A stretch of DNA of 43,039 nt from sequence record PP920554.1; one strand, given 5' to 3'. This DNA comes from Escherichia phage SM_S24. Below, piece by piece: positions 3,512-43,039 of the stretch (positions are counted from its first letter, which is position 1; the number at the start of each line of letters is the position of its first letter). A program made the position numbers and the translations under genes. The notes under the pieces are model-generated. The model was not told the origin of the DNA and searched no databases. It was given only the letters and a program-made list of their open reading frames with translations.

Positions 3512-4598
3512 TCAATATATGGCGGATCGCATGATCCGCCGTCACATCTTCACCCAGCGCCTGAGCAATGACCAGGCGCGGAGGGTGCTGGCTATGTGGG
3601 AGAAGTTCCGGCCCACGTTACTGGGTAAGCTGACCGAGTTACTTGATGGCAAAAAGTCCATGAATAACAAAGCACTTACCACACTGTTAACGCAACTCGA
3701 CAAGACCGTCAAAACGGAACTGCGCACCGAGTTTAAGGCGTTGGCTGAAAGCCTTCAGGAGTTCGCCGACACCGAGGCTGATTATCTCGCCGACACATTA
3801 ACGGCAGCGATCCAGCCGGTGGTCGCCGTACCTGCGGTCGAGGTGGTTGGTGTAGTGACCGGTGCGCAGATCGCAGCGACGGCTATGAAAAACCCGTTCC
3901 AAGGTAATACTATGATGCAATGGCCTGACTCACTTTCTGAGTGGACCAGGACGCAGATCGGTAACCAGGTGCGAGCGGGATTCATCCAGGGCAAGCCAAC
4001 GATGGAAATTATCGCGGACGTGAGGCGCGCGCTAGGCGGTCGTAGTGCGCAAGCTATCTCGAGCGTTGTTAAGTCCGCAGTCAACCACTATGCGGCGACA
4101 GCCCGCGAATTAATGGTAAAAGCTAATGACGATATTCTCGAAGGTCGCCAATGGTTATCTACATTGGACACGCATACTTCTCCCATGTGCCAGCTACGCG
4201 ATCGCCTGTTTTATCCGGTTGATGTTACTCCCGACACCAAAGGAAAGCGCGGCGGGAAAGTGGTGGCTGGGTCACAATATGGCGCTGGTCCGGGCAAGCT
4301 GCATTATTGCTGCCGGTCGACGGAGACGTGGAAAGTTAAGGGCATGGAAGATTGGCCCAGTGGTAAGCGTCCGGCACTGAAGGCTGACGCGGGTAGATTG
4401 CTGAGTGAGCAGGTAGACGCGCAGACTGATTTCTTCTCATGGGTGCAGCGCCAGCCGCGCCATATCCTGGAAGAACTATACGGAGTGCAACGCGCCGACC
4501 AGATTATGCGCGGCGTGAAAGTGCCGAAGATGTTCACCGATTCAGGTGAACTGATGACTATCGCACAGCTTAAAAACCGGGGGTTATGGCGTGATTAA
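3495..4598 (+). CDS. head morphogenesis / minor capsid protein (SPP1 gp7 / Mu F-like position)
   Basis: 367 aa ORF overlapping the portal 3' end; synteny terL-portal-morphogenesis; alternative ATG at 3519. Confidence 0.5.
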   Translation: MARTINQYMADRMIRRHIFTQRLSNDQARRVLAMWEKFRPTLLGKLTELLDGKKSMNNKALTTLLTQLDKTVKTELRTEFKALAESLQEFADTEADYLADTLTAAIQPVVAVPAVEVVGVVTGAQIAATAMKNPFQGNTMMQWPDSLSEWTRTQIGNQVRAGFIQGKPTMEIIADVRRALGGRSAQAISSVVKSAVNHYAATARELMVKANDDILEGRQWLSTLDTHTSPMCQLRDRLFYPVDVTPDTKGKRGGKVVAGSQYGAGPGKLHYCCRSTETWKVKGMEDWPSGKRPALKADAGRLLSEQVDAQTDFFSWVQRQPRHILEELYGVQRADQIMRGVKVPKMFTDSGELMTIAQLKNRGLWRD

Positions 4599-8295: not shown

Positions 8296-8635
8296 TTACG
8301 CAGGATTAAAGCGGAAAGTCAATCCGCTGATTAAAAAGTTCGGCATGACGGCTACGGTGACGCGCCCAGGTACAGTCGATCGCGTAGACGGCAACGAAGT
8401 AGTAATCCCTCCGTCCTCGTTTGACGTCATCGGACTTCGCGAGGAGTACAAGCCAAGCGAGATCGACGGTACGCGTATCGTTGCCGGGGATGTGAAGTTT
8501 TTGTGCCAGGCCATCAAGCAGGTAAAGGTCGGCGATTTGGTTAGCCTGAACGGCACTGACTACCGGGTTATCAATCCAAACCCGCTGCAACCGGCTGGCG
8601 CGACCATGCTGTTTCAACTACAGCTAAGGGGGTAA
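8282..8635 (+). CDS. head-tail joining / neck protein (putative)
   Basis: 117 aa from ATG 8282 (RBS GGAGG, 6-nt spacer); position in the neck gene block. Confidence 0.4.
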   Translation: MAGFNYAGLKRKVNPLIKKFGMTATVTRPGTVDRVDGNEVVIPPSSFDVIGLREEYKPSEIDGTRIVAGDVKFLCQAIKQVKVGDLVSLNGTDYRVINPNPLQPAGATMLFQLQLRG

Positions 8636-10468: not shown

Positions 10469-10491
10469 GGGGCCAGCACGGCCCCTTTTTT
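10469..10491 (+). terminator. intrinsic terminator after the major tail protein gene
   Basis: GGGGCC-AGCAC-GGCCCC followed by TTTTTT. Confidence 0.7.
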
Positions 10492-10507
10492 ATTGGAGAA
10501 TACTACA

Positions 10508-11185: not shown

Positions 11186-11447
11186 GAAGCGGGACAAGCG
11201 GGACGCCCCGTTTTGTCCCGCCCCTGTAAAACTGCATATCTAATCACTTTCATTGCATAAACTCAAAGCGGGACAGGCGGGACGTCCCGTTTTGTCCCAC
11301 CCCTGAAATGTGCATACCTATTCGAATTTCGTGCATAAAACAAACGGGACAGAAAGCGGGACAAATGCGGGGCGGGACAAAGCGGGACAGCACCCCATCC
11401 CCACCAGTGCTGCCGCGGTTTTCAGCCGATCGGGACAGGCGGGACAA
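11186..11447 (+). repeat. array A of GCGGGACA(R) octamers with interspersed TGCATA(A) boxes
   Basis: at least 10 same-strand octamer copies (about 11189, 11198, 11268, 11277, 11343, 11355, 11372, 11382, 11431, 11439) plus inverted GTCCCGC copies; non-coding gap between GT stop and tape measure start. Confidence 0.8.
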
Positions 11448-11448
11448 A

Positions 11449-11500
11449 CCCCAGTCTTTCAGACTAGACGGGGGTCAACGGCCCCCCTCGTCTGAGACTG
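11449..11500 (+). other. conserved imperfect hairpin element, copy 1
   Basis: CCCCAGTCTTTCAGACTAGACGGGGG-TCAACGG-CCCCCCTCGTCTGAGACTG; both arms identical to the copy at 38331-38383, loop differs. Confidence 0.75.
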
Positions 11501-11569
11501 AATAAGGTTTGTTTTAAAATCGCTGATACAATGTCAATCGGCAACTGCATAAAAAAAGGGGACTGCATA

Positions 11570-14212
11570 ATGGCAGATCAAGCGGCAGGCATCACGCTGA
11601 AGGCGGATGTCGCACAAATCAGAACGGCGAATACTGTGCTTGATTCATTCGCACAGAAATCCGAGAACACAGAAAACAAGGTTAAGAAATTAAACGACAC
11701 CCTCGGCAAATCCAAAAAGGTGACGAGTGACGCCGCGGGCGGAATGGAGAAGCTGGCGACTGAATCGCAGCGCGCTGCCGATGGCATGACGAAACAGGAG
11801 CGACTTGCCAACAGGTTAGGCATGTCGACCAAAAACCTGGGCTTTGCCTCGCGTAACGCCGCATTCCAGTTACAGGATATTGCGGTAACGCTTGAGATGG
11901 GTATGCCGGTGCACCGCGTTATGCTTCAGCAGTTACCACAGCTTACTGGGGCGTTCGGGGGATTTGGTAACACGCTGCGTTATGTCGCGGGCGTCCTCGG
12001 TCCGGTAGGGATCGGCATTGCAGCACTAACGGCAACTTTAGGCGTAGGGGTGGCAATTACGTCCCGCGCAGAGAACCAGGTCTCAGCGCTTAACAAGACG
12101 CTGGCGCTGTCAGGTAACATTTCCGGCCTAACGGCAAACCAGATCCTGGTGCTATCCGAGAACGCCGAGCGCATGGGCGGATCATTCCGCAAGACGCGTG
12201 ACACAATCCAGGCGCTGGCGGCGGCGGGTGTGAAAGCGGGGGCGGACTTCGGCGCGCTGGCGAAGGTTGTGAATGACTTCGCGAAGGCGTCTAATCAGCC
12301 GATCTCTGACGTGGTTGAATCCATCTCAAAATTGTCGAACGACCCAGTGGGCGGACTGCGTGCGCTGGCGGATAAGTATCATGTCGTTACCGAGGCGCAG
12401 ATCCAGCAGGTGCAATCGCTTGTAGATATGGGGCGTGAAACGGACGCGGTTGCTCTGGCTAACAAAACAGCCGCTGCGTCGTTCTCCAGCATGACCGATG
12501 AGGTAAAGTCCAACATGGGTACGCTTGAGCGGTCGATGAACGTAGTTACATCGGCAGCTAAATCTATGTGGGATGCCATCCTGGATGTGGGCCGCGCGCA
12601 GTCCTCGAATGAGTCCGAGATGAAAGCGCGTGAGTCCTTGCAGCGCATGACCACGGCGTACTATGCCGAGATGAGGGCGGTAAACGCTGCCGGTGGGGTG
12701 ATGACCGAAGCGCAGAAGGCGCGTATTAACATGCTTTACAGCGAACTGGTCGCCCAGGAAAAAGTGGTGGCGTCGCTCACCCTGCGTAACCGTGCTGAGC
12801 GAGACAACGCCCGCGCCGCAGACGAATCCGCAAAGGCGAACGAGGAGGCCAACCGCACTGCCCGTGACCGCGCCGCGTTCGAGAAGGAATACGCCACCAA
12901 CGCTAAGAAGCGCGCCGACGAGATCGCCCGCCTCAATTTGCTGAATAAGCGCGGCGTTATTGATGAGAAAGAACTAGCCGAGGCGGTGAAGCAGGTAAAC
13001 GAGCGGTACAAAGACCCAGCCCCGAAAAAGGCCGCGGCTGTTCGCGTGGATGCCGGTATGAAAATGCTGGAGGTCGCACGGAGCGAACTGGCACAGCTTC
13101 GAGAATCAGGCAAGCAGATCGAAGCCAACGCATCGACGCAGACCCGCACGCAACGCGCGCAAGCGGCCCTTAACAAGCTGATTGCCGACAACGAGCAGTT
13201 AATCGCTGCGAGCAAAGAAAGGGCGCTGACGGCAGCAGAGAAGCAGCAATTAGTCGAATTTGGACGCGTGAAGGAAGTCCGCGAGCAGATCGTCGAAGAA
13301 GCCAAATTGCTGGACGCGAAAGAGAAGCAGGTCAAGGCGCACGCGCAGATCGATGCCTTCGTTAAGAACCAGAACGCAGAGCTAAAAGCCACCGCCGCGG
13401 GCTATGCACTTTCCACTCGCGAAGCGGCTAACCTTCGCGAAGAATTGCAGCTAATTGACCGCCTTCGTCGTGTTGGCGCTAACGATACCGATATTGACCT
13501 GGCGGTGTCTAAGCTGCGCGAAGTGCAGGAAGCACAGACCGGGGCTAACGCCTCGCTATGGGATGGCTTCAGCCGCGGGCTTAAGGATAGCGTTGATGAA
13601 ATGGGTAACGGATATACGCAGATGACGACACTCACAAAATTCACGTTCGGCGCTATGCAGGACACGATGAACGAGTTTTTTGAGACTGGCAAGCTGAACG
13701 CAAAGGATATGGTTAAGTCCATCCTGAGCGAATTAATCAAGCTGGCTACCTCGCAGGCGTTCAAGTCCATCGTTAGCGCTTTCGGTGGTGACGGCGGCAA
13801 AAACGGATTGTTCGGCGCTATCTTCTCTGGCCTTACTAAGAATGCGGACGGCGGAGCGTACGCAGGAGGCAATCTCGCGGCCTATTCGGGGAAAGTGGTA
13901 AGCCAGCCTACCTTTTTCAGTTATGGCGTCCAGGCGTTCGCTAAGGGCGCTGGGTTGATGGGTGAGGCTGGACCCGAGGCCATCATGCCACTGAAGCGCG
14001 GGCCGGACGGGAAACTGGGCGTTGCCGCGTCTGGAGCAGGCGGTGGTATGGTCGTGACGACTAACGTTTACACGGGGACCGGTAAGACGGATACCAGTGT
14101 TGGCGGGCCGGACCCACGTACCGCGCAGGCGTTCGGCAAGCAAATCACCGAGGCGGTGAAGGCCGAGATCGTGAAGGCGACGAAACCGGGTGGTGTACTT
14201 TACAAACGATGA
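11570..14212 (+). CDS. tail tape measure protein
   Basis: 880 aa from ATG 11570 (RBS AAGGGG); long Ala/Gln/Glu-rich helical protein with hydrophobic segments and Gly-rich C-terminal region; position after G/GT. Confidence 0.85.
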   Translation: MADQAAGITLKADVAQIRTANTVLDSFAQKSENTENKVKKLNDTLGKSKKVTSDAAGGMEKLATESQRAADGMTKQERLANRLGMSTKNLGFASRNAAFQLQDIAVTLEMGMPVHRVMLQQLPQLTGAFGGFGNTLRYVAGVLGPVGIGIAALTATLGVGVAITSRAENQVSALNKTLALSGNISGLTANQILVLSENAERMGGSFRKTRDTIQALAAAGVKAGADFGALAKVVNDFAKASNQPISDVVESISKLSNDPVGGLRALADKYHVVTEAQIQQVQSLVDMGRETDAVALANKTAAASFSSMTDEVKSNMGTLERSMNVVTSAAKSMWDAILDVGRAQSSNESEMKARESLQRMTTAYYAEMRAVNAAGGVMTEAQKARINMLYSELVAQEKVVASLTLRNRAERDNARAADESAKANEEANRTARDRAAFEKEYATNAKKRADEIARLNLLNKRGVIDEKELAEAVKQVNERYKDPAPKKAAAVRVDAGMKMLEVARSELAQLRESGKQIEANASTQTRTQRAQAALNKLIADNEQLIAASKERALTAAEKQQLVEFGRVKEVREQIVEEAKLLDAKEKQVKAHAQIDAFVKNQNAELKATAAGYALSTREAANLREELQLIDRLRRVGANDTDIDLAVSKLREVQEAQTGANASLWDGFSRGLKDSVDEMGNGYTQMTTLTKFTFGAMQDTMNEFFETGKLNAKDMVKSILSELIKLATSQAFKSIVSAFGGDGGKNGLFGAIFSGLTKNADGGAYAGGNLAAYSGKVVSQPTFFSYGVQAFAKGAGLMGEAGPEAIMPLKRGPDGKLGVAASGAGGGMVVTTNVYTGTGKTDTSVGGPDPRTAQAFGKQITEAVKAEIVKATKPGGVLYKR

Positions 14213-35296: not shown

Positions 35297-35626
35297 ATGA
35301 ATATCAAAGAAGCAATTGAAGTGTTATCTAATGCAATCCGCGGCGAAGCGGGTAAATCCTGGTATTACACAAATGCGGTGGATACTCTGTTATTTGAAGT
35401 GTCCAGATTATCGCGTGCTGAGAAGGAGCTTACCGCGAAGCTGGAATTACTCAACGGTACGGCAGCAAGCAAGCTGCAAAAGCACAATGAAGAAATGGAA
35501 GAATACAAAAAACAGGTTATCCGTCTACGTGAGGAAGGTAAATCCTGGGCGATGATTGCCGAGTTGACCGGAATTAATCAGAGCACAGTGCGCTCCTGGG
35601 TACGCAATAATAAAACTTCTAAGTAA
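35297..35626 (+). CDS. HTH DNA-binding protein (putative transcriptional regulator)
   Basis: 109 aa, RBS AGGAG; C-terminal helix-turn-helix-like segment WAMIAELTGINQSTVRSWV; first rightward gene at the divergent promoter region. Confidence 0.55.
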   Translation: MNIKEAIEVLSNAIRGEAGKSWYYTNAVDTLLFEVSRLSRAEKELTAKLELLNGTAASKLQKHNEEMEEYKKQVIRLREEGKSWAMIAELTGINQSTVRSWVRNNKTSK

Positions 35627-35636
35627 GGCCACGGCA

Positions 35637-37901
35637 ATGAGCTTAATTAAATTCGCTGTAACAAGACCCGCTAAAAAAGGCGAAAAAGCCAGGGCGGAAA
35701 ACTTCCAGATGACTACCGAAGAGTTTTTCGAATTTATCAATGATGCGAAAGAAATCTCCTCGGTGCATATCAACAAAACGGAAGATAAAGCCGAGTATGC
35801 ACGCCGCAAGCGTAAGGCCGACGGCATCGTGGCGTATACCAGTGACGGATTGCGTCGCAAGACCAGTGCGGTGGACCGCTCGATCCTGTTCTTCGATATT
35901 GACCGTACTGACACCCGCACCCTACGCCGCTGCCGTAAGGCGTTCATCGACGCGGGACTGGAGCACGTCTTCCACACCACAACCGGCGACCGTCACCCAC
36001 TGAAAGGTGGAACGCGTTGCGCTCGCTTCCTGGTGTTGACCGACAAGCCTGTACCGGCTGAAGACCTGGGCCGTGTCCAGTATGCGCTATTACACCAACT
36101 GGGCCTGTCAGATGTGGACTTCGACGACTGCACGAAAGACACAAACCGCCTTATGTACCTACCACACCAGCAGTCTGTTATTAAGTGCCACTATGGCAAG
36201 CGCGCCCGCGTCCGTCGTCTGCTTCGCCTGGCTGACAAGCTGGGAGTTGAGAAAGAGGAAGTCCGCCGCGAACTGACCCAGGGCGACGACGCAGTGGCAG
36301 ACGGCATTCTGGACTGGTGCTTCCAGGCAGGATTCGAGGAGTTATCTTCCGGTCGGGGTTATGAAGTGCCGTGCCCGAACGAACATCTGCACAGCGGCGA
36401 AGGGTCGACGGCTATCATGGTCAAGGATGGCGAGATCCGTTTCAAGTGTATGCACACAGGCAACGAGTGTTGCTCGGAACTGAATAGGCACCAGCACCTG
36501 GCGCTACGTCTTATCGGGATCCCGGACCACCTGAACGTCGAGCCACACAATATGTCCCGTAAGCAAATCGCCGCCATCCTTCCGGGGCTGGACGACGAAG
36601 AAGTCGAATCCTTATATGAACATATTGTTGATGCAGTTGGCGACGGCGAAGAATACGGCGTGTGCACCGATGCAGATCTGGATAACGAGCCGGTTGCGCT
36701 GTTCAGTAAGCACGACCCGATTATCGAGGGGTTGATTAACTTTAAATCGACCTGGTACATGGCGGGTGAGTCGAATATCGGTAAGTCTTTCTACGTGCTG
36801 GGCCAGATGGGTGCGGTTGCCGCGGGGATTCCGTTCGGCGGTGCGAAGGTCGTCCAGTCTCATTGCTTCTATTTCGACGCGGAAGGTGGTGAAGCCTCCA
36901 ACCAGCGTAAGGAAGCACTGCAGATCAAATATGAGCACGACCTGGATAAGCTGCACATTATAGACCTGCAGTCACGCGGCTGGGATATCACCAGCAAATC
37001 AGGCTTGCGCGAAGTTATCAGCTTTATCAACCGCACCGCTAACGGCGAACCGGTTGGCCTGGTGGCGTTCGACTCTCTCAACCAGACTGTTGCGCTGCGG
37101 TCCGCCGATGCTAAACCGTTCGACGAGAACAACGCCAGCGATATGGGCGAAGTGGTAAAAGCGCTGAAAGCCATCGCGGAAAATACCGGCGGCAGTGCTG
37201 GCGTCATCCACCACCCGGCGAAGGGTGCAAACGGCAGCAGATCCCCCCGCGGGTCCGGCGCGCTGCATGGTGCTGTTGATTCTGCGTTCTTCCTTGAGCA
37301 ACCGGACGACAACCAGCCAGGCCAATTGAACCTGTATCACGAAAAGGCACGTAACGGCATCAAGCAAGCGCCGCGTGGCTTCGTCCTGCTCAAGTGCAAG
37401 GTGAAGGTAGATCTCCGCAAGTCAGAAGCGTTCGCGTCGCACCAGTCCACCAGCACCGGTCCGGACTTCGGCGACGTGGTTGCCGGATGGGACGTCAAGC
37501 CGATTGCCTCCACGCCACGCGACGAGACTCTCTACCTCGTACCGGTTGCCCTGGCACCGTTCGCTATTGAACAGGCGAAGGCCGCGGGCAAAGCAGCAGT
37601 TAAAGAAGAGAACACCGCCGGACCGCGCAACGAAAAAGAGAAAGTGCTCTATGCGGCACTGGAAAAACTGATGGAAGATAACCCGGACCATACTGGATTC
37701 AGTAAATCGGCAATTGTCCGCCAGGCTGGGCTGGCAAAAGGTGGCACTTCGACGAAGGCAATCGACGATATGGTGGAGCGAGGAGTGATAGGTTTTTACA
37801 CCGATCCGCACACCGGGGCCATCTATGGGTCGTCTAATTTGGTCATCAAATCGGATATACCCATCACGCTTTCAGCGACCGATGACGATTTAAAAGATTA
37901 A
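35637..37901 (+). CDS. primase-helicase (AEP-type primase, zinc-binding region, P-loop NTPase)
   Basis: 754 aa; N-terminal DxD-type motif ILFFDIDRTD, Cys/His cluster CPNEHLHSGE...CMHTGNEC, Walker A GESNIGKS and Walker B-like LVAFDSL; iteron array begins at its stop codon. Confidence 0.7.
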   Translation: MSLIKFAVTRPAKKGEKARAENFQMTTEEFFEFINDAKEISSVHINKTEDKAEYARRKRKADGIVAYTSDGLRRKTSAVDRSILFFDIDRTDTRTLRRCRKAFIDAGLEHVFHTTTGDRHPLKGGTRCARFLVLTDKPVPAEDLGRVQYALLHQLGLSDVDFDDCTKDTNRLMYLPHQQSVIKCHYGKRARVRRLLRLADKLGVEKEEVRRELTQGDDAVADGILDWCFQAGFEELSSGRGYEVPCPNEHLHSGEGSTAIMVKDGEIRFKCMHTGNECCSELNRHQHLALRLIGIPDHLNVEPHNMSRKQIAAILPGLDDEEVESLYEHIVDAVGDGEEYGVCTDADLDNEPVALFSKHDPIIEGLINFKSTWYMAGESNIGKSFYVLGQMGAVAAGIPFGGAKVVQSHCFYFDAEGGEASNQRKEALQIKYEHDLDKLHIIDLQSRGWDITSKSGLREVISFINRTANGEPVGLVAFDSLNQTVALRSADAKPFDENNASDMGEVVKALKAIAENTGGSAGVIHHPAKGANGSRSPRGSGALHGAVDSAFFLEQPDDNQPGQLNLYHEKARNGIKQAPRGFVLLKCKVKVDLRKSEAFASHQSTSTGPDFGDVVAGWDVKPIASTPRDETLYLVPVALAPFAIEQAKAAGKAAVKEENTAGPRNEKEKVLYAALEKLMEDNPDHTGFSKSAIVRQAGLAKGGTSTKAIDDMVERGVIGFYTDPHTGAIYGSSNLVIKSDIPITLSATDDDLKD

Positions 37902-38167
37902 ATTTTGCGCGCATTGGTCGCCGTTATGGGAATCCCCATATCGGTAAAAGATTAAATTTTGCGCGCATTGGTCGCCGTTATGGGAATCCCCATATCGGTA
38001 AAAGATTAAATTTTGCGCGCATTGGTTGCCATTTTGCGTGCTTTTAGCCGGTCGTTAAAAGATTAAATTTTGCGCGCATTGGTCGCCGTTATGGGAATCC
38101 CCATATCGGTAAAAGATTAAATTTTGCGCGCATTGGTTGCCATTTTGCGTGCTTTTAGCCGGTCGTA
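37892..38167. repeat. iteron array, candidate origin of replication
   Basis: five tandem 54-57 bp units (A-A-B-A-B) sharing core AAAAGATTAAATTTTGCGCGCATTGGT(C/T)GCC with the 8-bp palindrome TGCGCGCA; begins at the primase-helicase stop codon. Confidence 0.6.
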
Positions 38168-38194
38168 TTGGTTGCCGTGTAGTGTAAATATAAT
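38168..38194 (+). promoter_or_regulatory. promoter-like element upstream of GGGACA array B
   Basis: perfect TATAAT at about 38189-38194 with weak -35 (TTGGTT, 15-nt spacer) inside an ATTGGTTGCC box. Confidence 0.35.
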
Positions 38195-38224
38195 GAATAG
38201 TTATGCAGTTTTATTGCATAAAGT

Positions 38225-38330
38225 AAGCGGGACAAAAAGCGGGACAGACCAGGGGCGGGACAAAGCGGGACAGCACCCTGTCCCGCCCCGGATGACGCGG
38301 CCTGGCGAGGAGCGGGACAGCGGGACAGCA
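38225..38330 (+). repeat. array B of GCGGGACA(R) octamers
   Basis: copies at about 38227, 38239, 38255, 38265, 38312, 38321 plus inverted TGTCCCGC at 38279; preceded by a TTATGCA/TGCATAA inverted pair and a TATAAT box. Confidence 0.8.
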
Positions 38331-38383
38331 CCCCAGTCTTTCAGACTAGACGGGGGGTCTGGCACCCCCCTCGTCTGAGACTG
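38331..38383 (+). other. conserved imperfect hairpin element, copy 2
   Basis: CCCCAGTCTTTCAGACTAGACGGGGGG-TCTGGCA-CCCCCCTCGTCTGAGACTG; arms identical to copy 1. Confidence 0.75.
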
Positions 38384-38542
38384 CATAAAATCCGGGATTG
38401 CATAACGCACGGCAACAAGATGCGAATTGCGGTCGTCGATGAACTAGGCAACCAATGCGCGTTGCAGAATGGTGGGCGAAAAATGCAGTTTGCAGTTGCA
38501 GCAGATAGCGATCAACTTTTTCATGCGCGTGATTAATATTGG

Positions 38543-38571
38543 TTGCATTCACCCTGGCACCCTGCTATTTT
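38543..38571 (+). promoter_or_regulatory. promoter-like element upstream of the 38600 operon
   Basis: TTGCAT-17 nt-TATTTT; -35 inside ATTGGTTGCAT, second TTGGTTGCA just downstream; region nearly identical to the moron 5' region. Confidence 0.45.
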
Positions 38572-38599
38572 GGTTGCACACCAACAAGAGGACTGAACG

Positions 38600-38926
38600 A
38601 TGAGAGCGATTATCTGGAATTACGCAATGGCTATGGCGGCGGCACAAGAAGCGGCGGAGTTCGCCGGTGAAGGAGCGGAAGCGGTCGAAAGACTATCGGC
38701 AGCGTGGTCCGTTGTTCGCGTTACGCAGCAGGCCATCGCCTGTATGCTGGAGCGCCGCTTCGACACTATGGCAGAGATTCAGCCACTGGCGAACGCTATC
38801 CAGGATTACGCGCTTGCCTTTGCCCGTGAGCGCCTGGCGTATCGCTTCGGGATCGGCGAGACGGCAGTGACTAACGTCGCCCGGATTAAAGCCCAGCGTG
38901 AGCTATTCTCCCAGCTTGCGAAATAA
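38600..38926 (+). CDS. hypothetical protein
   Basis: 108 aa, RBS AAGAGGA 7 nt upstream; first gene after the second GGGACA array. Confidence 0.45.
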   Translation: MRAIIWNYAMAMAAAQEAAEFAGEGAEAVERLSAAWSVVRVTQQAIACMLERRFDTMAEIQPLANAIQDYALAFARERLAYRFGIGETAVTNVARIKAQRELFSQLAK

Positions 38927-41810: not shown

Positions 41811-42953
41811 ATGCACCCGCAAACTAAAATTACCGATGAGCAATTGATCGCAGAAATTCAGGCAGGGACTACGGTTAAAGATATTGCGAAGAAATACGGG
41901 ATTGCCCTACGCAATGTTTATATGCGGAAAGCCCGCCTGTCGAAAAAAGGCATTGGACACGGCAACGATGCCGTAATACGCAAGCGCGTTGCCGATGGGT
42001 TTGGGGTTAAGCGCGTATCGGCCCTGGTGCGCGGCAATGGCGAAGAGGTCATGTCGTGGGTCATCACTGAGCAGGACAAAGAGCGCCAACTCGAAGCCAT
42101 GCGCGCTGTTGTCGAGGGTATGAACAGCGAAATCACACCGGCAGCGCCAGTAAAAGCCCCGCCAGTACCGATCCAGGCGCTAGACTTGCTCAACCTGTAC
42201 ACCGTGTCAGACTTCCACCTGGGCATGTTGGCATGGGGCGAGGAGACTGGCGAAGACTGGGATATGGCGATCGCCGAAGACCTGTTCTACCGCTGGTTTG
42301 TCGAAGCCTTCGCACGCGCCCCGGACGCAGGCACTGCCGTGATCAATATCCTCGGCGATATGGCGCACTTTGATAGCCTTGATGCCGTCACACCGGCAAG
42401 CGGTCACGTATTGGACGCCGACACCCGATACCAGAAGTTAGTCCGCTACATGATCCGCATGGTGCGCAACGTGGTAGACCTAGCGCTGCAAAAACACCAC
42501 AAAGTCAAACTGCTAATCGTCCAGGGTAATCATGACGAGTCAGGCATGATTTGGCTTGCTGAGATGTTCAACACGCTGTACGAGAACGAGCCGCGCGTCG
42601 ATGTGGATACGTCCCCGGACGTCTACAAAATGGTGCAGCACGGTAAGACCACGCTATTCTTCCACCACGGGCACAAAGCGCGCTTCGATGCTATCGAAAC
42701 CGTCATGATTTCTAAATTCAGACAGGCGTTCGGGTCGAGCGAATACAGCTACGCGCATGTCGGTCACTTGCACCACCAGAAGATTGTTGAATCCCGCAAC
42801 ATGATTGTTGAACAGCACCGGACCCTCGCAGCGAAAGACGCATATGCCAGCCGTGGTGGTTGGATGTCCGGTCGCAGTGCCAACGTAATCACCTATAGCG
42901 CCAACTACGGCGAAGTGGCGCGCTTAACCATTAGCCCGGAAATGTTGAAGTAA
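41811..42953 (+). CDS. HTH domain + calcineurin-like metallophosphoesterase (SbcD/Mre11-like motif set)
   Basis: 380 aa; N-terminal HTH-like TVKDIAKKYGIALRNVYMRK; motifs SDFHLG, GDMAHFD, QGNHDE, FHHGH, GHLHHQ in the canonical metallophosphoesterase order. Confidence 0.55.
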   Translation: MHPQTKITDEQLIAEIQAGTTVKDIAKKYGIALRNVYMRKARLSKKGIGHGNDAVIRKRVADGFGVKRVSALVRGNGEEVMSWVITEQDKERQLEAMRAVVEGMNSEITPAAPVKAPPVPIQALDLLNLYTVSDFHLGMLAWGEETGEDWDMAIAEDLFYRWFVEAFARAPDAGTAVINILGDMAHFDSLDAVTPASGHVLDADTRYQKLVRYMIRMVRNVVDLALQKHHKVKLLIVQGNHDESGMIWLAEMFNTLYENEPRVDVDTSPDVYKMVQHGKTTLFFHHGHKARFDAIETVMISKFRQAFGSSEYSYAHVGHLHHQKIVESRNMIVEQHRTLAAKDAYASRGGWMSGRSANVITYSANYGEVARLTISPEMLK

Positions 42954-43039
42954 CGGCAACCCATAAGCCTCCCAGCCTGCCGATTTGGTGGGCTTTTTTG
43001 TGCCTGTTATAATCCCCTTAGATGGCAGGGCCGTCTCCT

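Follow-up and report, generated by a model that had tools for sequence, protein, structure and literature searches.

A candidate iteron origin with a bulged hairpin, duplicated in the tail operon of the Dhillonvirus SM_S24

Why should a phage interrupt its tail operon with an array of short repeats and a hairpin? The question is raised by Escherichia phage SM_S24 (sequence record PP920554.1), in which the gap between the tail chaperone gene GT and the tape measure gene carries a series of GCGGGACA octamers that ends in a 52-nt imperfect palindrome (positions 11186-11500). The window referred to below is the whole stretch of 43,039 nucleotides that was analysed. It is a complete Dhillonvirus genome, and its gene order agrees with that of a complete annotated Dhillonvirus. 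A preliminary description of the site considered the place between these two genes unusual for such an element, a judgment we share, and favoured roles at the level of RNA. Sequence comparisons point instead to DNA. The array and hairpin are probably, though by no means certainly, the iterons of a phage replication origin, which lies beside the helicase-primase gene at 38 kb and of which the tail operon carries a duplicate that would act as a second origin or a cis-replication site. Iteron origins with such a duplicate are a known kind of element; the position and the widely shared motif are the unusual features.

Exact GCGGGACA occurs 18 times in the window, as against 2.03 +/- 1.5 times in shuffled sequence, and none of 100 shuffles reached 18. 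Fourteen of the 18 fall into two clusters, one in the tail-operon gap (11186-11447) and the other at 38227-38327. Seven exact octamers lie within 11189-11446, six of them on the plus strand and one on the minus strand. Counted by its CGGGAC core, the tail cluster has ten same-strand copies (11190, 11199, 11269, 11278, 11345, 11357, 11373, 11383, 11431, 11440) and two inverted ones (11215, 11284). At least ten same-strand octamers had been claimed for the gap; that number is reached if the one-base variants GCGGGACG, ACGGGACA and TCGGGACA are included, but not with exact octamers only. The inverted GTCCCGC, the palindrome CGGGACGTCCCG and the TGCATA(A) boxes were all found as described.

The proximal part of the tail array, 11187-11339, is a local 79-bp tandem duplication that is missing at 38 kb. 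Each tandem unit consists of two direct iterons, one inverted iteron that forms a local hairpin, and an A+T-rich TGCATA-N15-TGCATAAA segment. The local hairpin of unit 1 has a folding energy of -25.2 kcal/mol (z = -5.3). The parts labelled D2 and D4 are 91% and 71% identical between unit 2 and unit 1, at a spacing of 78-79 nt. The four direct iterons that come next are set 12, 16 and 10 nt apart from start to start, and the same 12/16/10-nt pattern is repeated at 38228-38272. The spacings of neighbouring repeats run 9, 9, 12, 16, 10, 9 nt in the tail copy and 12, 16, 10, 8 nt in the 38-kb module. Direct repeats about one helical turn apart, a hallmark of iteron origins, are thus present in both.

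The match between the two modules is extensive. The whole module had been said to recur at 38225-38383; this holds for the distal part, where 11332-11505 aligns with 38215-38388 at 80.7% identity over 176 nt with common repeat spacing and a common terminal hairpin, but not for the proximal part, 11187-11339. The first iteron of the 38-kb copy lies 326 nt past the stop codon of the helicase-primase gene (37901), inside a 700-nt intergenic region, and six plus-strand CGGGAC copies are found at 38228-38321. Two further features of iteron origins can be recognized. First, the hairpin follows directly after the last iteron in both copies. Second, A+T-rich TGCATA segments occur in units 1 and 2 and after the hairpin. 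As to adjacency to a replication gene, the module at 38227-38388 has it, whereas the tail copy is 24 kb from any replication gene.

Conservation singles out the repeats and the hairpin arms. In an alignment of 15 Dhillonvirus sequences the column identity is 94% for the iteron cores and 85.5% for the spacers; the hairpin arms, bulged bases included, reach 99.8% and the loop 84%. The 38-kb copy shows the same pattern, with cores and arms above spacers and loop. A conserved small protein was considered and ruled out, as the 65-aa open reading frame (ORF) at 11308-11505 is missing in four of the 15 relatives and differs in frame, start and length in the rest. No ORF in the region is conserved among the 15 sequences, which bears out the original remark that no ORF with a ribosome-binding site covers it.

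The module is a constant part of these genomes. A 2-kb query around the tail-gap array matched 158 phage records at 80-98% identity, nearly all Escherichia or Shigella Dhillonvirus, the closest being vB_EcoD_Over9000 at 97.9%. All 158 Dhillonvirus-type records that match the flanking genes have the element, whose absence from related phages had been named as a ground for dismissing it. A search of 5,426 E. coli genomes and of the PLSDB plasmids found no copy, and so gives no support for a satellite or host element sharing the site.

A pointer to replication comes from unrelated phages. Viral contigs were scanned with the pattern CGGGACA-N1-9-CGGGACA-N1-9-CGGGAC, which gave at least 120 stretches, at least 107 of them not Dhillonvirus. 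Among the matches listed, to which the counts in this paragraph refer, the arrays range from 37% to 72% G+C and reach 26 copies per 300 nt; neighbouring copies are most often 10 nt apart (range 9-12). Clustering of the neighbouring ORFs gave two dominant partners. The first is a primase-helicase with the Pfam domains Prim-Pol and AAA_25, found at 35 loci; at 33 of these the array starts between -223 and +287 nt from the stop codon, on the strand of the gene. A terminal palindrome of the form GGGACA..CCC-TWWA-GGG..TGTCCC is present at 13 of the 35 Prim-Pol loci and at none of the 72 others. The second partner, at 24 loci, is a protein of about 260 aa with the array inside its gene, read in all three frames. 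Its PHROG annotations are "DnaD-like helicase loader", "replication initiation protein" and "replication initiation O-like", and a DnaB helicase gene usually comes after it.

In at least 59 unrelated loci, then, the GGGACA motif abuts or sits inside replication genes. Other multi-copy arrays abut the gene of a DnaB_N plus AAA_25 helicase, that of a D5_N/DUF5906/Pox_D5 primase-helicase (with an RFX-type winged helix) and those of phrog_35358 primases. A few low-copy matches in portal or methylase genes look like chance. Arrays that are read in all three frames of an initiator gene are a DNA signal and not a peptide repeat. More generally, because the arrays elsewhere lie in or beside replication-initiation genes, in three frames and, as palindromes, in both orientations, the signal appears to be one in DNA. 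Literature searches for the motif returned primer noise only, and its wide distribution appears to be undescribed there. In Sulfitobacter phage pCB2047-A, eight GGGACA copies lie in SUAG_00025 (1745-1895), five of them in a run with an 11-nt period; this "hypothetical" protein is likely a replication initiator with an internal origin. The primase-helicase of Roseobacter phage CRP-823 is 45% identical to one of the array-associated primase-helicases. Just after its gene (about 3600-3790) are ACTACAAA repeats ending in ACTACAAA-aa-CCCTTTAGGG-t-TTGTAGT. The design of array plus palindrome, CCCTTTAGGG included, is kept here with ACTACAAA as the repeat word.

The hairpin is the second component of the module. 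As RNA the tail copy folds with -25.8 kcal/mol (z = -3.75) and the 38-kb copy with -28.0 kcal/mol (z ~ -3.7). Both are stable as DNA too, and the opposite strand of the tail hairpin gives -27.3 kcal/mol. It had been noted that the arms of the two copies are identical and the loops different (TCAACGG vs TCTGGCA), and that is the case. The pattern had been taken as the mark of a selected secondary structure, but a DNA or single-stranded DNA structure recognised by a protein, or gene conversion, would fit it equally. Across genomes the loop variants TCAATGG, TCAGCGG, TCAGTGG, TCTGGCA and TCAACGG occur at either locus, which indicates sequence exchange between the two loci. In about 30 Dhillonvirus copies the arms, bulges included, show no variation, and with no pair that changes there is no covariation within Dhillonvirus. 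When matches to the hairpin core were sought in viral contigs for a covariation set, only Dhillonvirus and Eiauvirus copies and chance G+C-rich matches were found, so the set could not be built. The core GACGGGGG..CCCCTCGTC is common to these two genera. In the single cross-genus comparison, with Edwardsiella phage eiAU-183 (Eiauvirus), the lower stem is different yet paired, which fits a DNA hairpin equally. By analogy with the ssi hairpins of plasmid RSF1010, arms this invariant, bulges included, suggest a site that is recognised by a specific fold or by its sequence. A divergent Dhillonvirus-like IMG/VR contig, 3300045988_050407, has at 8596-8621 the 3' arm GTCTTCAGACTG in place of GTCTGAGACTG, an uncompensated change that weakens the middle stem; it is the sole arm variant besides single-base changes in two sequences (L020, L081).

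Table 1. Features of the two modules and of their surroundings in the window
Feature	Position	Strand	Remarks
Terminase, head and tail genes	1 to ~22.7 kb	+	gene order
Tandem unit 1	11187-11261	+	GCGGGACA 11189-11196, GCGGGAC 11198-11204, inverted GTCCCGC 11215-11221; then A+T-rich segment with TGCATA 11233, TGCATAA 11254
Tandem unit 2	11266-11339	+	GCGGGACA 11268, GCGGGAC 11277, palindrome CGGGACGTCCCG 11278-11289, inverted GTCCCA; TGCATA 11311, TGCATAA 11332
Four direct iterons	11344-11390	+	ACGGGACA, then three GCGGGACA
Invariant spacer block CCAGTGCTGCCGCGG	11404-11418	+	tail-operon copy only
Last iteron pair	11430-11446	+	TCGGGACA, GCGGGACA; directly abuts hairpin
Bulged hairpin / imperfect palindrome, 52 nt	11449-11500	.	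arms 11452-11474 and 11483-11500 invariant, loop variable
Extended -10-like element TGATACAAT	11524-11532	+	38 nt upstream of tape measure ATG; invariant in 15 of 15 relatives
Two TGCATAA boxes	11546, 11564	+	bracket tape measure ribosome-binding site AAAAAGGGG; second overlaps ATG 11568-11570
Replication genes	to ~35.1 kb	-	gene order
Helix-turn-helix gene, helicase-primase gene, 700-nt intergenic region, small genes, lysis genes	after ~35.1 kb	+	wraps to terminase
Replicative helicase-primase, 754 aa	35637-37901	+	phrog_3228 "replicative helicase-primase", Pfam AAA_25
Inverted pair TTATGCA / TGCATAA	38194-38221	.	immediately upstream of origin-proximal array
Origin-proximal array (putative)	38227-38327	+	six direct GCGGGACA and one inverted (38279-38286)
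Second hairpin copy	38331-38383	.	arms as in tail copy, loop GTCTGGCA
Two TGCATAA boxes	38382, 38399		after second hairpin

The protein most likely to use these sites would be the helicase-primase encoded just before the 38-kb module (Table 1). Its AAA_25 helicase core spans residues 357-531, and the N-terminus has a weak PHROG primase match (phrog_9765, 3.8e-6). By blastp the core is similar to the array-associated primase-helicases (E = 7e-16 to 1e-9); in a pairwise BLAST with a single Prim-Pol protein (L031) the similarity is not significant, the homology being seen only against the wider set. The C-terminus, about residues 665-735 (nt ~37629-37841), is modelled as a winged helix with pLDDT 65-73. 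The modelled fold has the order H-H-H-strand-wing-strand (H45-60, H69-75, H86-93 and two strands) and makes up the last ~90 structured residues. A protein search with the C-terminal 133 aa gave three matches only. Binding of the iterons by the helicase-primase through this predicted domain is a reasoned guess. The repeat motifs differ among related helicase-primases, being GCGGGACA, CGCCCCG, TTCCGCACA or ACTACAAA. The gene directly before that of the helicase-primase (35297-35626) encodes a 109-aa protein that has a helix-turn-helix (HTH) at its C-terminus (Pfam HTH_23 / Sigma70_r4_2, PHROG "transposase") and is a candidate binder for one of the repeat families.

The two-locus layout is seen in a sister lineage with another repeat. 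In phage eiAU-183, whose helicase-primase is 47% identical, the helicase gene is likewise followed by a long non-coding region, and another separates GT from the tape measure gene. Common to both is a 52-nt element of CGCCCCG repeats with a GCCCCnGGGGC palindrome (88% identity, E = 4e-14), and GCAACCAA and TGCATAA-type boxes also occur in both. A hairpin with the core GACGGGGG..CCCCTCGTC and a TC bulge stands 40 nt before the tape measure gene. The same layout with a different repeat implies that the layout predates the genus split and that the G+C-rich repeat changed. The GT-tape measure gap of eiAU-183 is about 1.1 kb long (42122-43017 and 1-222 of its record) and contains a reverse-strand ORF at 42367-42720; the GenBank record has its ends in this gap, among the GCAACCAA repeats. 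In Serratia phage Smarc3, the helicase-primase is 46% identical and four TTCCGCACA repeats lie right after its gene.

A mechanism can be outlined in conditional terms. The module at 38215-38388 would be the origin-proximal one, and 11186-11500 a duplicate of its distal half that was enlarged by the 79-bp tandem. The helicase-primase would bind the repeats, most likely via its C-terminal winged helix, and oligomerise on the array. It would then open the DNA or load at the hairpin and the flanking A+T-rich DNA and prime synthesis. For the tail copy there are three options: it may fire as a second origin, it may pair with the primary origin as does crr of phage P4, or it may act as an initiator-bound fork barrier that aids the switch to concatemers, as proposed for oriR of phage SPP1. 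The extended -10-like element behind the hairpin might restart tape measure transcription downstream of the protein-occupied array.

That last element deserves a closer look. Between the hairpin and the tape measure start there is an invariant CTGATACAAT, which has the extended -10 form TG-n-TACAAT. By its fit to the consensus, TGATACAAT would be a promoter; it was not called by the hexamer scan because there is no -35 element. The tape measure gene likely starts at ATG 11568-11570, which is preceded by AAAAAGGGG and is the annotated start in relatives. The mechanical ORF start, ATG 11531, overlaps the TACAAT and has no ribosome-binding site. TGCATAA is enriched, with 13 occurrences in the window compared to 5.8 expected and eight of the 13 in the two modules. 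TGCATA(A) also comes in pairs 17-21 nt apart from start to start in both modules (11233-11260, 11311-11338, 11546-11570, 38201-38221, 38382-38405), and TTATGCATAA sequences in the eiAU-183 modules are similar to these boxes. A DnaA-box cluster was considered and rejected: TTATNCACA with at most one mismatch occurs 29 times in the genome against 26 expected, and twice in the module. The TGCATAA boxes match the DnaA box at 7-8 of nine positions at best. Further upstream, a canonical intrinsic terminator at 10469-10495 directly follows the major tail protein gene (GGGGCC-loop-GGCCCC, then TTTTTTATTG). It is annotated likewise in phage CS16 and corresponds to the attenuator that normally separates the major tail protein gene from the chaperone genes.

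The region between the helicase gene and the 38-kb array has a repeat family of its own. Five direct copies of (A)TTGGTTGC(C/A) lie within a perfect 111-bp tandem duplication (37950-38055 / 38061-38166), part of a TTGGTTGC region at 37950-38185. One inverted and two more copies (38447-38461, 38539-38578) are found before the gene at 38600, and close pairs at other intergenic or regulatory sites (5597/5610, 23953/23965, 25620/25637, 32191/32207). The family is also present in Eiauvirus and Smarc3: GCAACCAA, a word of this family, forms clusters in eiAU-183 both behind the helicase gene and between GT and the tape measure gene, and in Smarc3 at the helicase gene's 3' end. The family probably serves as an operator or an alternative initiator site.

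Several observations weigh against an iteron origin with a duplicate in the tail operon. The TTGGTTGC family, and not the array, could be the true initiator site. The repeats could be bound by the HTH protein of 35297-35626 or by a host factor instead of the helicase-primase. The top Foldseek matches of the C-terminal model, itself of medium confidence, are all winged-helix domains but have E > 0.3, and hhalign comparison of the C-terminal domains of the Dhillonvirus, Prim-Pol and O/DnaD-like classes gave probabilities below 10%, though the alignments are topologically sensible for winged helices. The helicase-primase is therefore a candidate binder. GC skew gives no origin signal; it tracks the direction of transcription only and is uninformative for that reason. 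Smarc3 has no tail-operon copy. A motif common to several unrelated initiator architectures is unusual for iterons. The array is on the sense strand of a transcribed operon and may have an added effect at the RNA level. Finally, literature searches for Dhillonvirus origins or repeats found no binding or origin-mapping data for any Dhillonvirus.

The spread of the motif over unrelated initiators allows a bolder proposal, which is possible but doubtful. (C)GGGACA may be a pan-phage origin word read by at least four architectures (Prim-Pol/AAA_25, DnaB_N/AAA_25, D5-type and O/DnaD-type), in hosts of 37% to 72% G+C, with the tail copy of the Dhillonvirus/Eiauvirus lineage a dedicated device. This would mean either that a mobile origin-binding module is shared or that the repeat has a structural property in common. 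Helicase-primase bound in the tail gap would then couple replication to late expression or to the concatemer switch, and the invariant bulged hairpin would be a loading site for primase or helicase in single-stranded form.

A transcriptional operator array is an unlikely explanation, although it could coexist with an iteron origin since initiators often autoregulate. A regulator such as the HTH protein, acting on GCGGGACA and/or TGCATAA, would switch the 38.6-kb operon and the distal tail genes; transcription would pause or terminate at the hairpin and begin, under regulation, at the TGATACAAT promoter. Both modules lie upstream of plus-strand gene blocks, the rightward operon beginning at about 38.6 kb; the extended -10-like element after the tail hairpin is invariant; TGCATAA boxes are enriched in both modules and bracket the tape measure ribosome-binding site; and the HTH protein is encoded beside the helicase gene. 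Moreover, iteron-binding initiators often double as repressors in iteron plasmids. The arrays of other phages, however, are inside or at the 3' ends of replication genes and not at promoters, a promoter scan called no sigma-70-like promoter in the 38-kb module, and the hairpin lacks a T-run. An operator would also leave it unexplained why array and palindrome travel with primase-helicase genes. A DNA operator array had been one of the roles first put forward; a DNA array bound by protein does come closest to the evidence, but the context is that of replication iterons rather than of a transcriptional operator.

The roles that the preliminary description preferred, at the level of late mRNA, are very unlikely. 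In that case the repeats would be an array for a CsrA-type or other RNA-binding protein, and the hairpin, as antiterminator, stabiliser or RNase III site, would uncouple the expression of GT from that of the tape measure gene. In favour are the sense-strand orientation of the repeats, the stability of the hairpin as RNA, its conserved arms and variable loop, and the lower stem of the Eiauvirus hairpin, which has changed and is still paired. These points are outweighed by others. An Rfam search of the whole window at the gathering threshold gave no match, the ~30 Dhillonvirus copies show no covariation, and the reverse strand folds equally well. A CsrA/RsmA-binding RNA was rejected as a candidate: the motif is (G)CGGGACA and not A(N)GGA in loops, its GGA follows G/C and lies in stems or single-stranded spacers, and no CsrB/RsmZ-type Rfam family matched. 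The homologous arrays are palindromic, two-stranded and placed in coding sequence in three frames, and the second copy is in a 700-nt intergenic region by the helicase gene and not in an operon that needs processing. An intrinsic terminator at either hairpin was rejected as well; the terminator scan called none at 11449-11500 or 38331-38383, and the hairpins are followed by AATAAGG and CATAAAA and not by a U-tract.

A duplicated packaging or recombination site, with repeats and hairpin as a pac-like terminase site or a recombination hotspot, is most improbable: the ends of a few GenBank records (CHD5UKE2, Kente, PNS1) fall within or close to the array, the annotated pac site of Smarc3 is in the intergenic DNA that follows its helicase gene, and the two copies swap loop alleles, but about five of 158 record ends within 700 nt of the array is a count compatible with chance, as expected from random linearisation or from assemblies that break at a repeat, for which reason the idea was rejected; the partners of the motif elsewhere are replication genes and not terminase genes, and two pac sites in the same orientation 27 kb apart would be unusual.

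If the iteron-origin reading is right, its consequences go beyond one phage. Dhillonviruses are common E. coli phages, found among therapy candidates, in the BASEL collection and in defence-system screens, and their replication origin has not been described. The reading would give them an origin and a second cis-replication site with exact coordinates. It would explain the conserved non-coding gap in the tail operon, and deleting or moving the gap may then affect replication besides tail expression, which is relevant to engineering. GGGACA arrays with 10-nt spacing and a terminal palindrome would be an origin signature for many uncultured phages. The genus would also supply a Gram-negative counterpart to the two-origin arrangement of SPP1.

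Among related systems are the Prim-Pol-class arrays, compared here as partial loci. They share with Dhillonvirus the word (C)GGGACA (ACTACAAA in CRP-823), a spacing of about 10 nt, the strand of the helicase gene, the order of repeats and then a palindrome or hairpin, and a homologous helicase core. Their arrays run over the stop codon or lie right against it, and inverted iterons flanking CCC-TWWA-GGG make up the palindrome; in Dhillonvirus 326 nt separate the stop codon from the array, and the hairpin is a distinct bulged sequence not composed of iterons. The searchable literature yielded no experimental characterisation of this class. In lambda the origin lies inside gene O. Systems of the lambda, O-like and DnaD-like type (for example pCB2047-A SUAG_00025) also have direct initiator-binding repeats beside an A+T-rich segment and a palindrome; they have an O-type initiator and carry the repeats inside coding sequence, whereas the Dhillonvirus arrays are intergenic and go with a helicase-primase.

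The octamer iterons of phage P4, TGTTCACC, reportedly form two separated clusters with direct and inverted copies, and crr is said to have arisen from a tandem duplication. The latter resembles units 1 and 2 of Dhillonvirus. The P4 sites are about 4.5 kb apart and both near the replication gene, and neither the iterons nor the binding domain has sequence similarity to those of Dhillonvirus. P4 alpha combines a DnaG-type primase with a superfamily 3 helicase, unlike the Dhillonvirus protein with its AAA_25 (RepA/DnaB-like) core and divergent N-terminal primase region. The organisation of the latter may be called analogous to the P4 alpha type, which does not mean membership of that family. In P4 alpha and in ORF904 of pRN1, primase, helicase and a C-terminal winged helix are joined in one protein, and pRN1 has an essential non-coding region downstream of the gene (PMC2777425). 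Phage-inducible chromosomal islands have an iteron origin after the pri-rep genes (PMC6092414).

A close precedent for the layout is SPP1, like Dhillonvirus a virulent siphophage (~44 kb) with two origin-type modules, one in the replication cluster and one in the late genes. Gene 38 contains oriL, and oriR occupies intergenic DNA that breaks the order of the late morphogenesis genes; both consist of gp38-bound direct repeats and a DNA unwinding element, and oriR has been proposed to stall forks and set off the switch from theta replication to concatemer synthesis (PMC6316719). The late-region copy is an intergenic segment bracketed by transcription signals, and one protein binds both copies. 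The differences are that the SPP1 initiator is a separate replisome organiser working with a DnaB-type helicase and a loader and not a fused helicase-primase, that the repeats are unrelated, that oriR is not between tail chaperone and tape measure genes, and that no terminal bulged hairpin is described. Binding and origin activity have been shown for SPP1; for the Dhillonvirus sites both are predicted.

The hairpin has a parallel in plasmid RSF1010, whose oriV has iterons together with the ssiA and ssiB hairpins and is served by the helicase RepA, the primase RepB' and RepC. There are two oppositely oriented ssi hairpins and three separate proteins in RSF1010, and no sequence similarity to the Dhillonvirus module. 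What the two have in common is the combination of iterons with hairpins, which in RSF1010 are recognised in single-stranded form by the plasmid primase, and a hexameric helicase, RepA being of the broad fold of AAA_25. By analogy, RSF1010 offers a model for the invariant arms and bulges of the Dhillonvirus hairpin.

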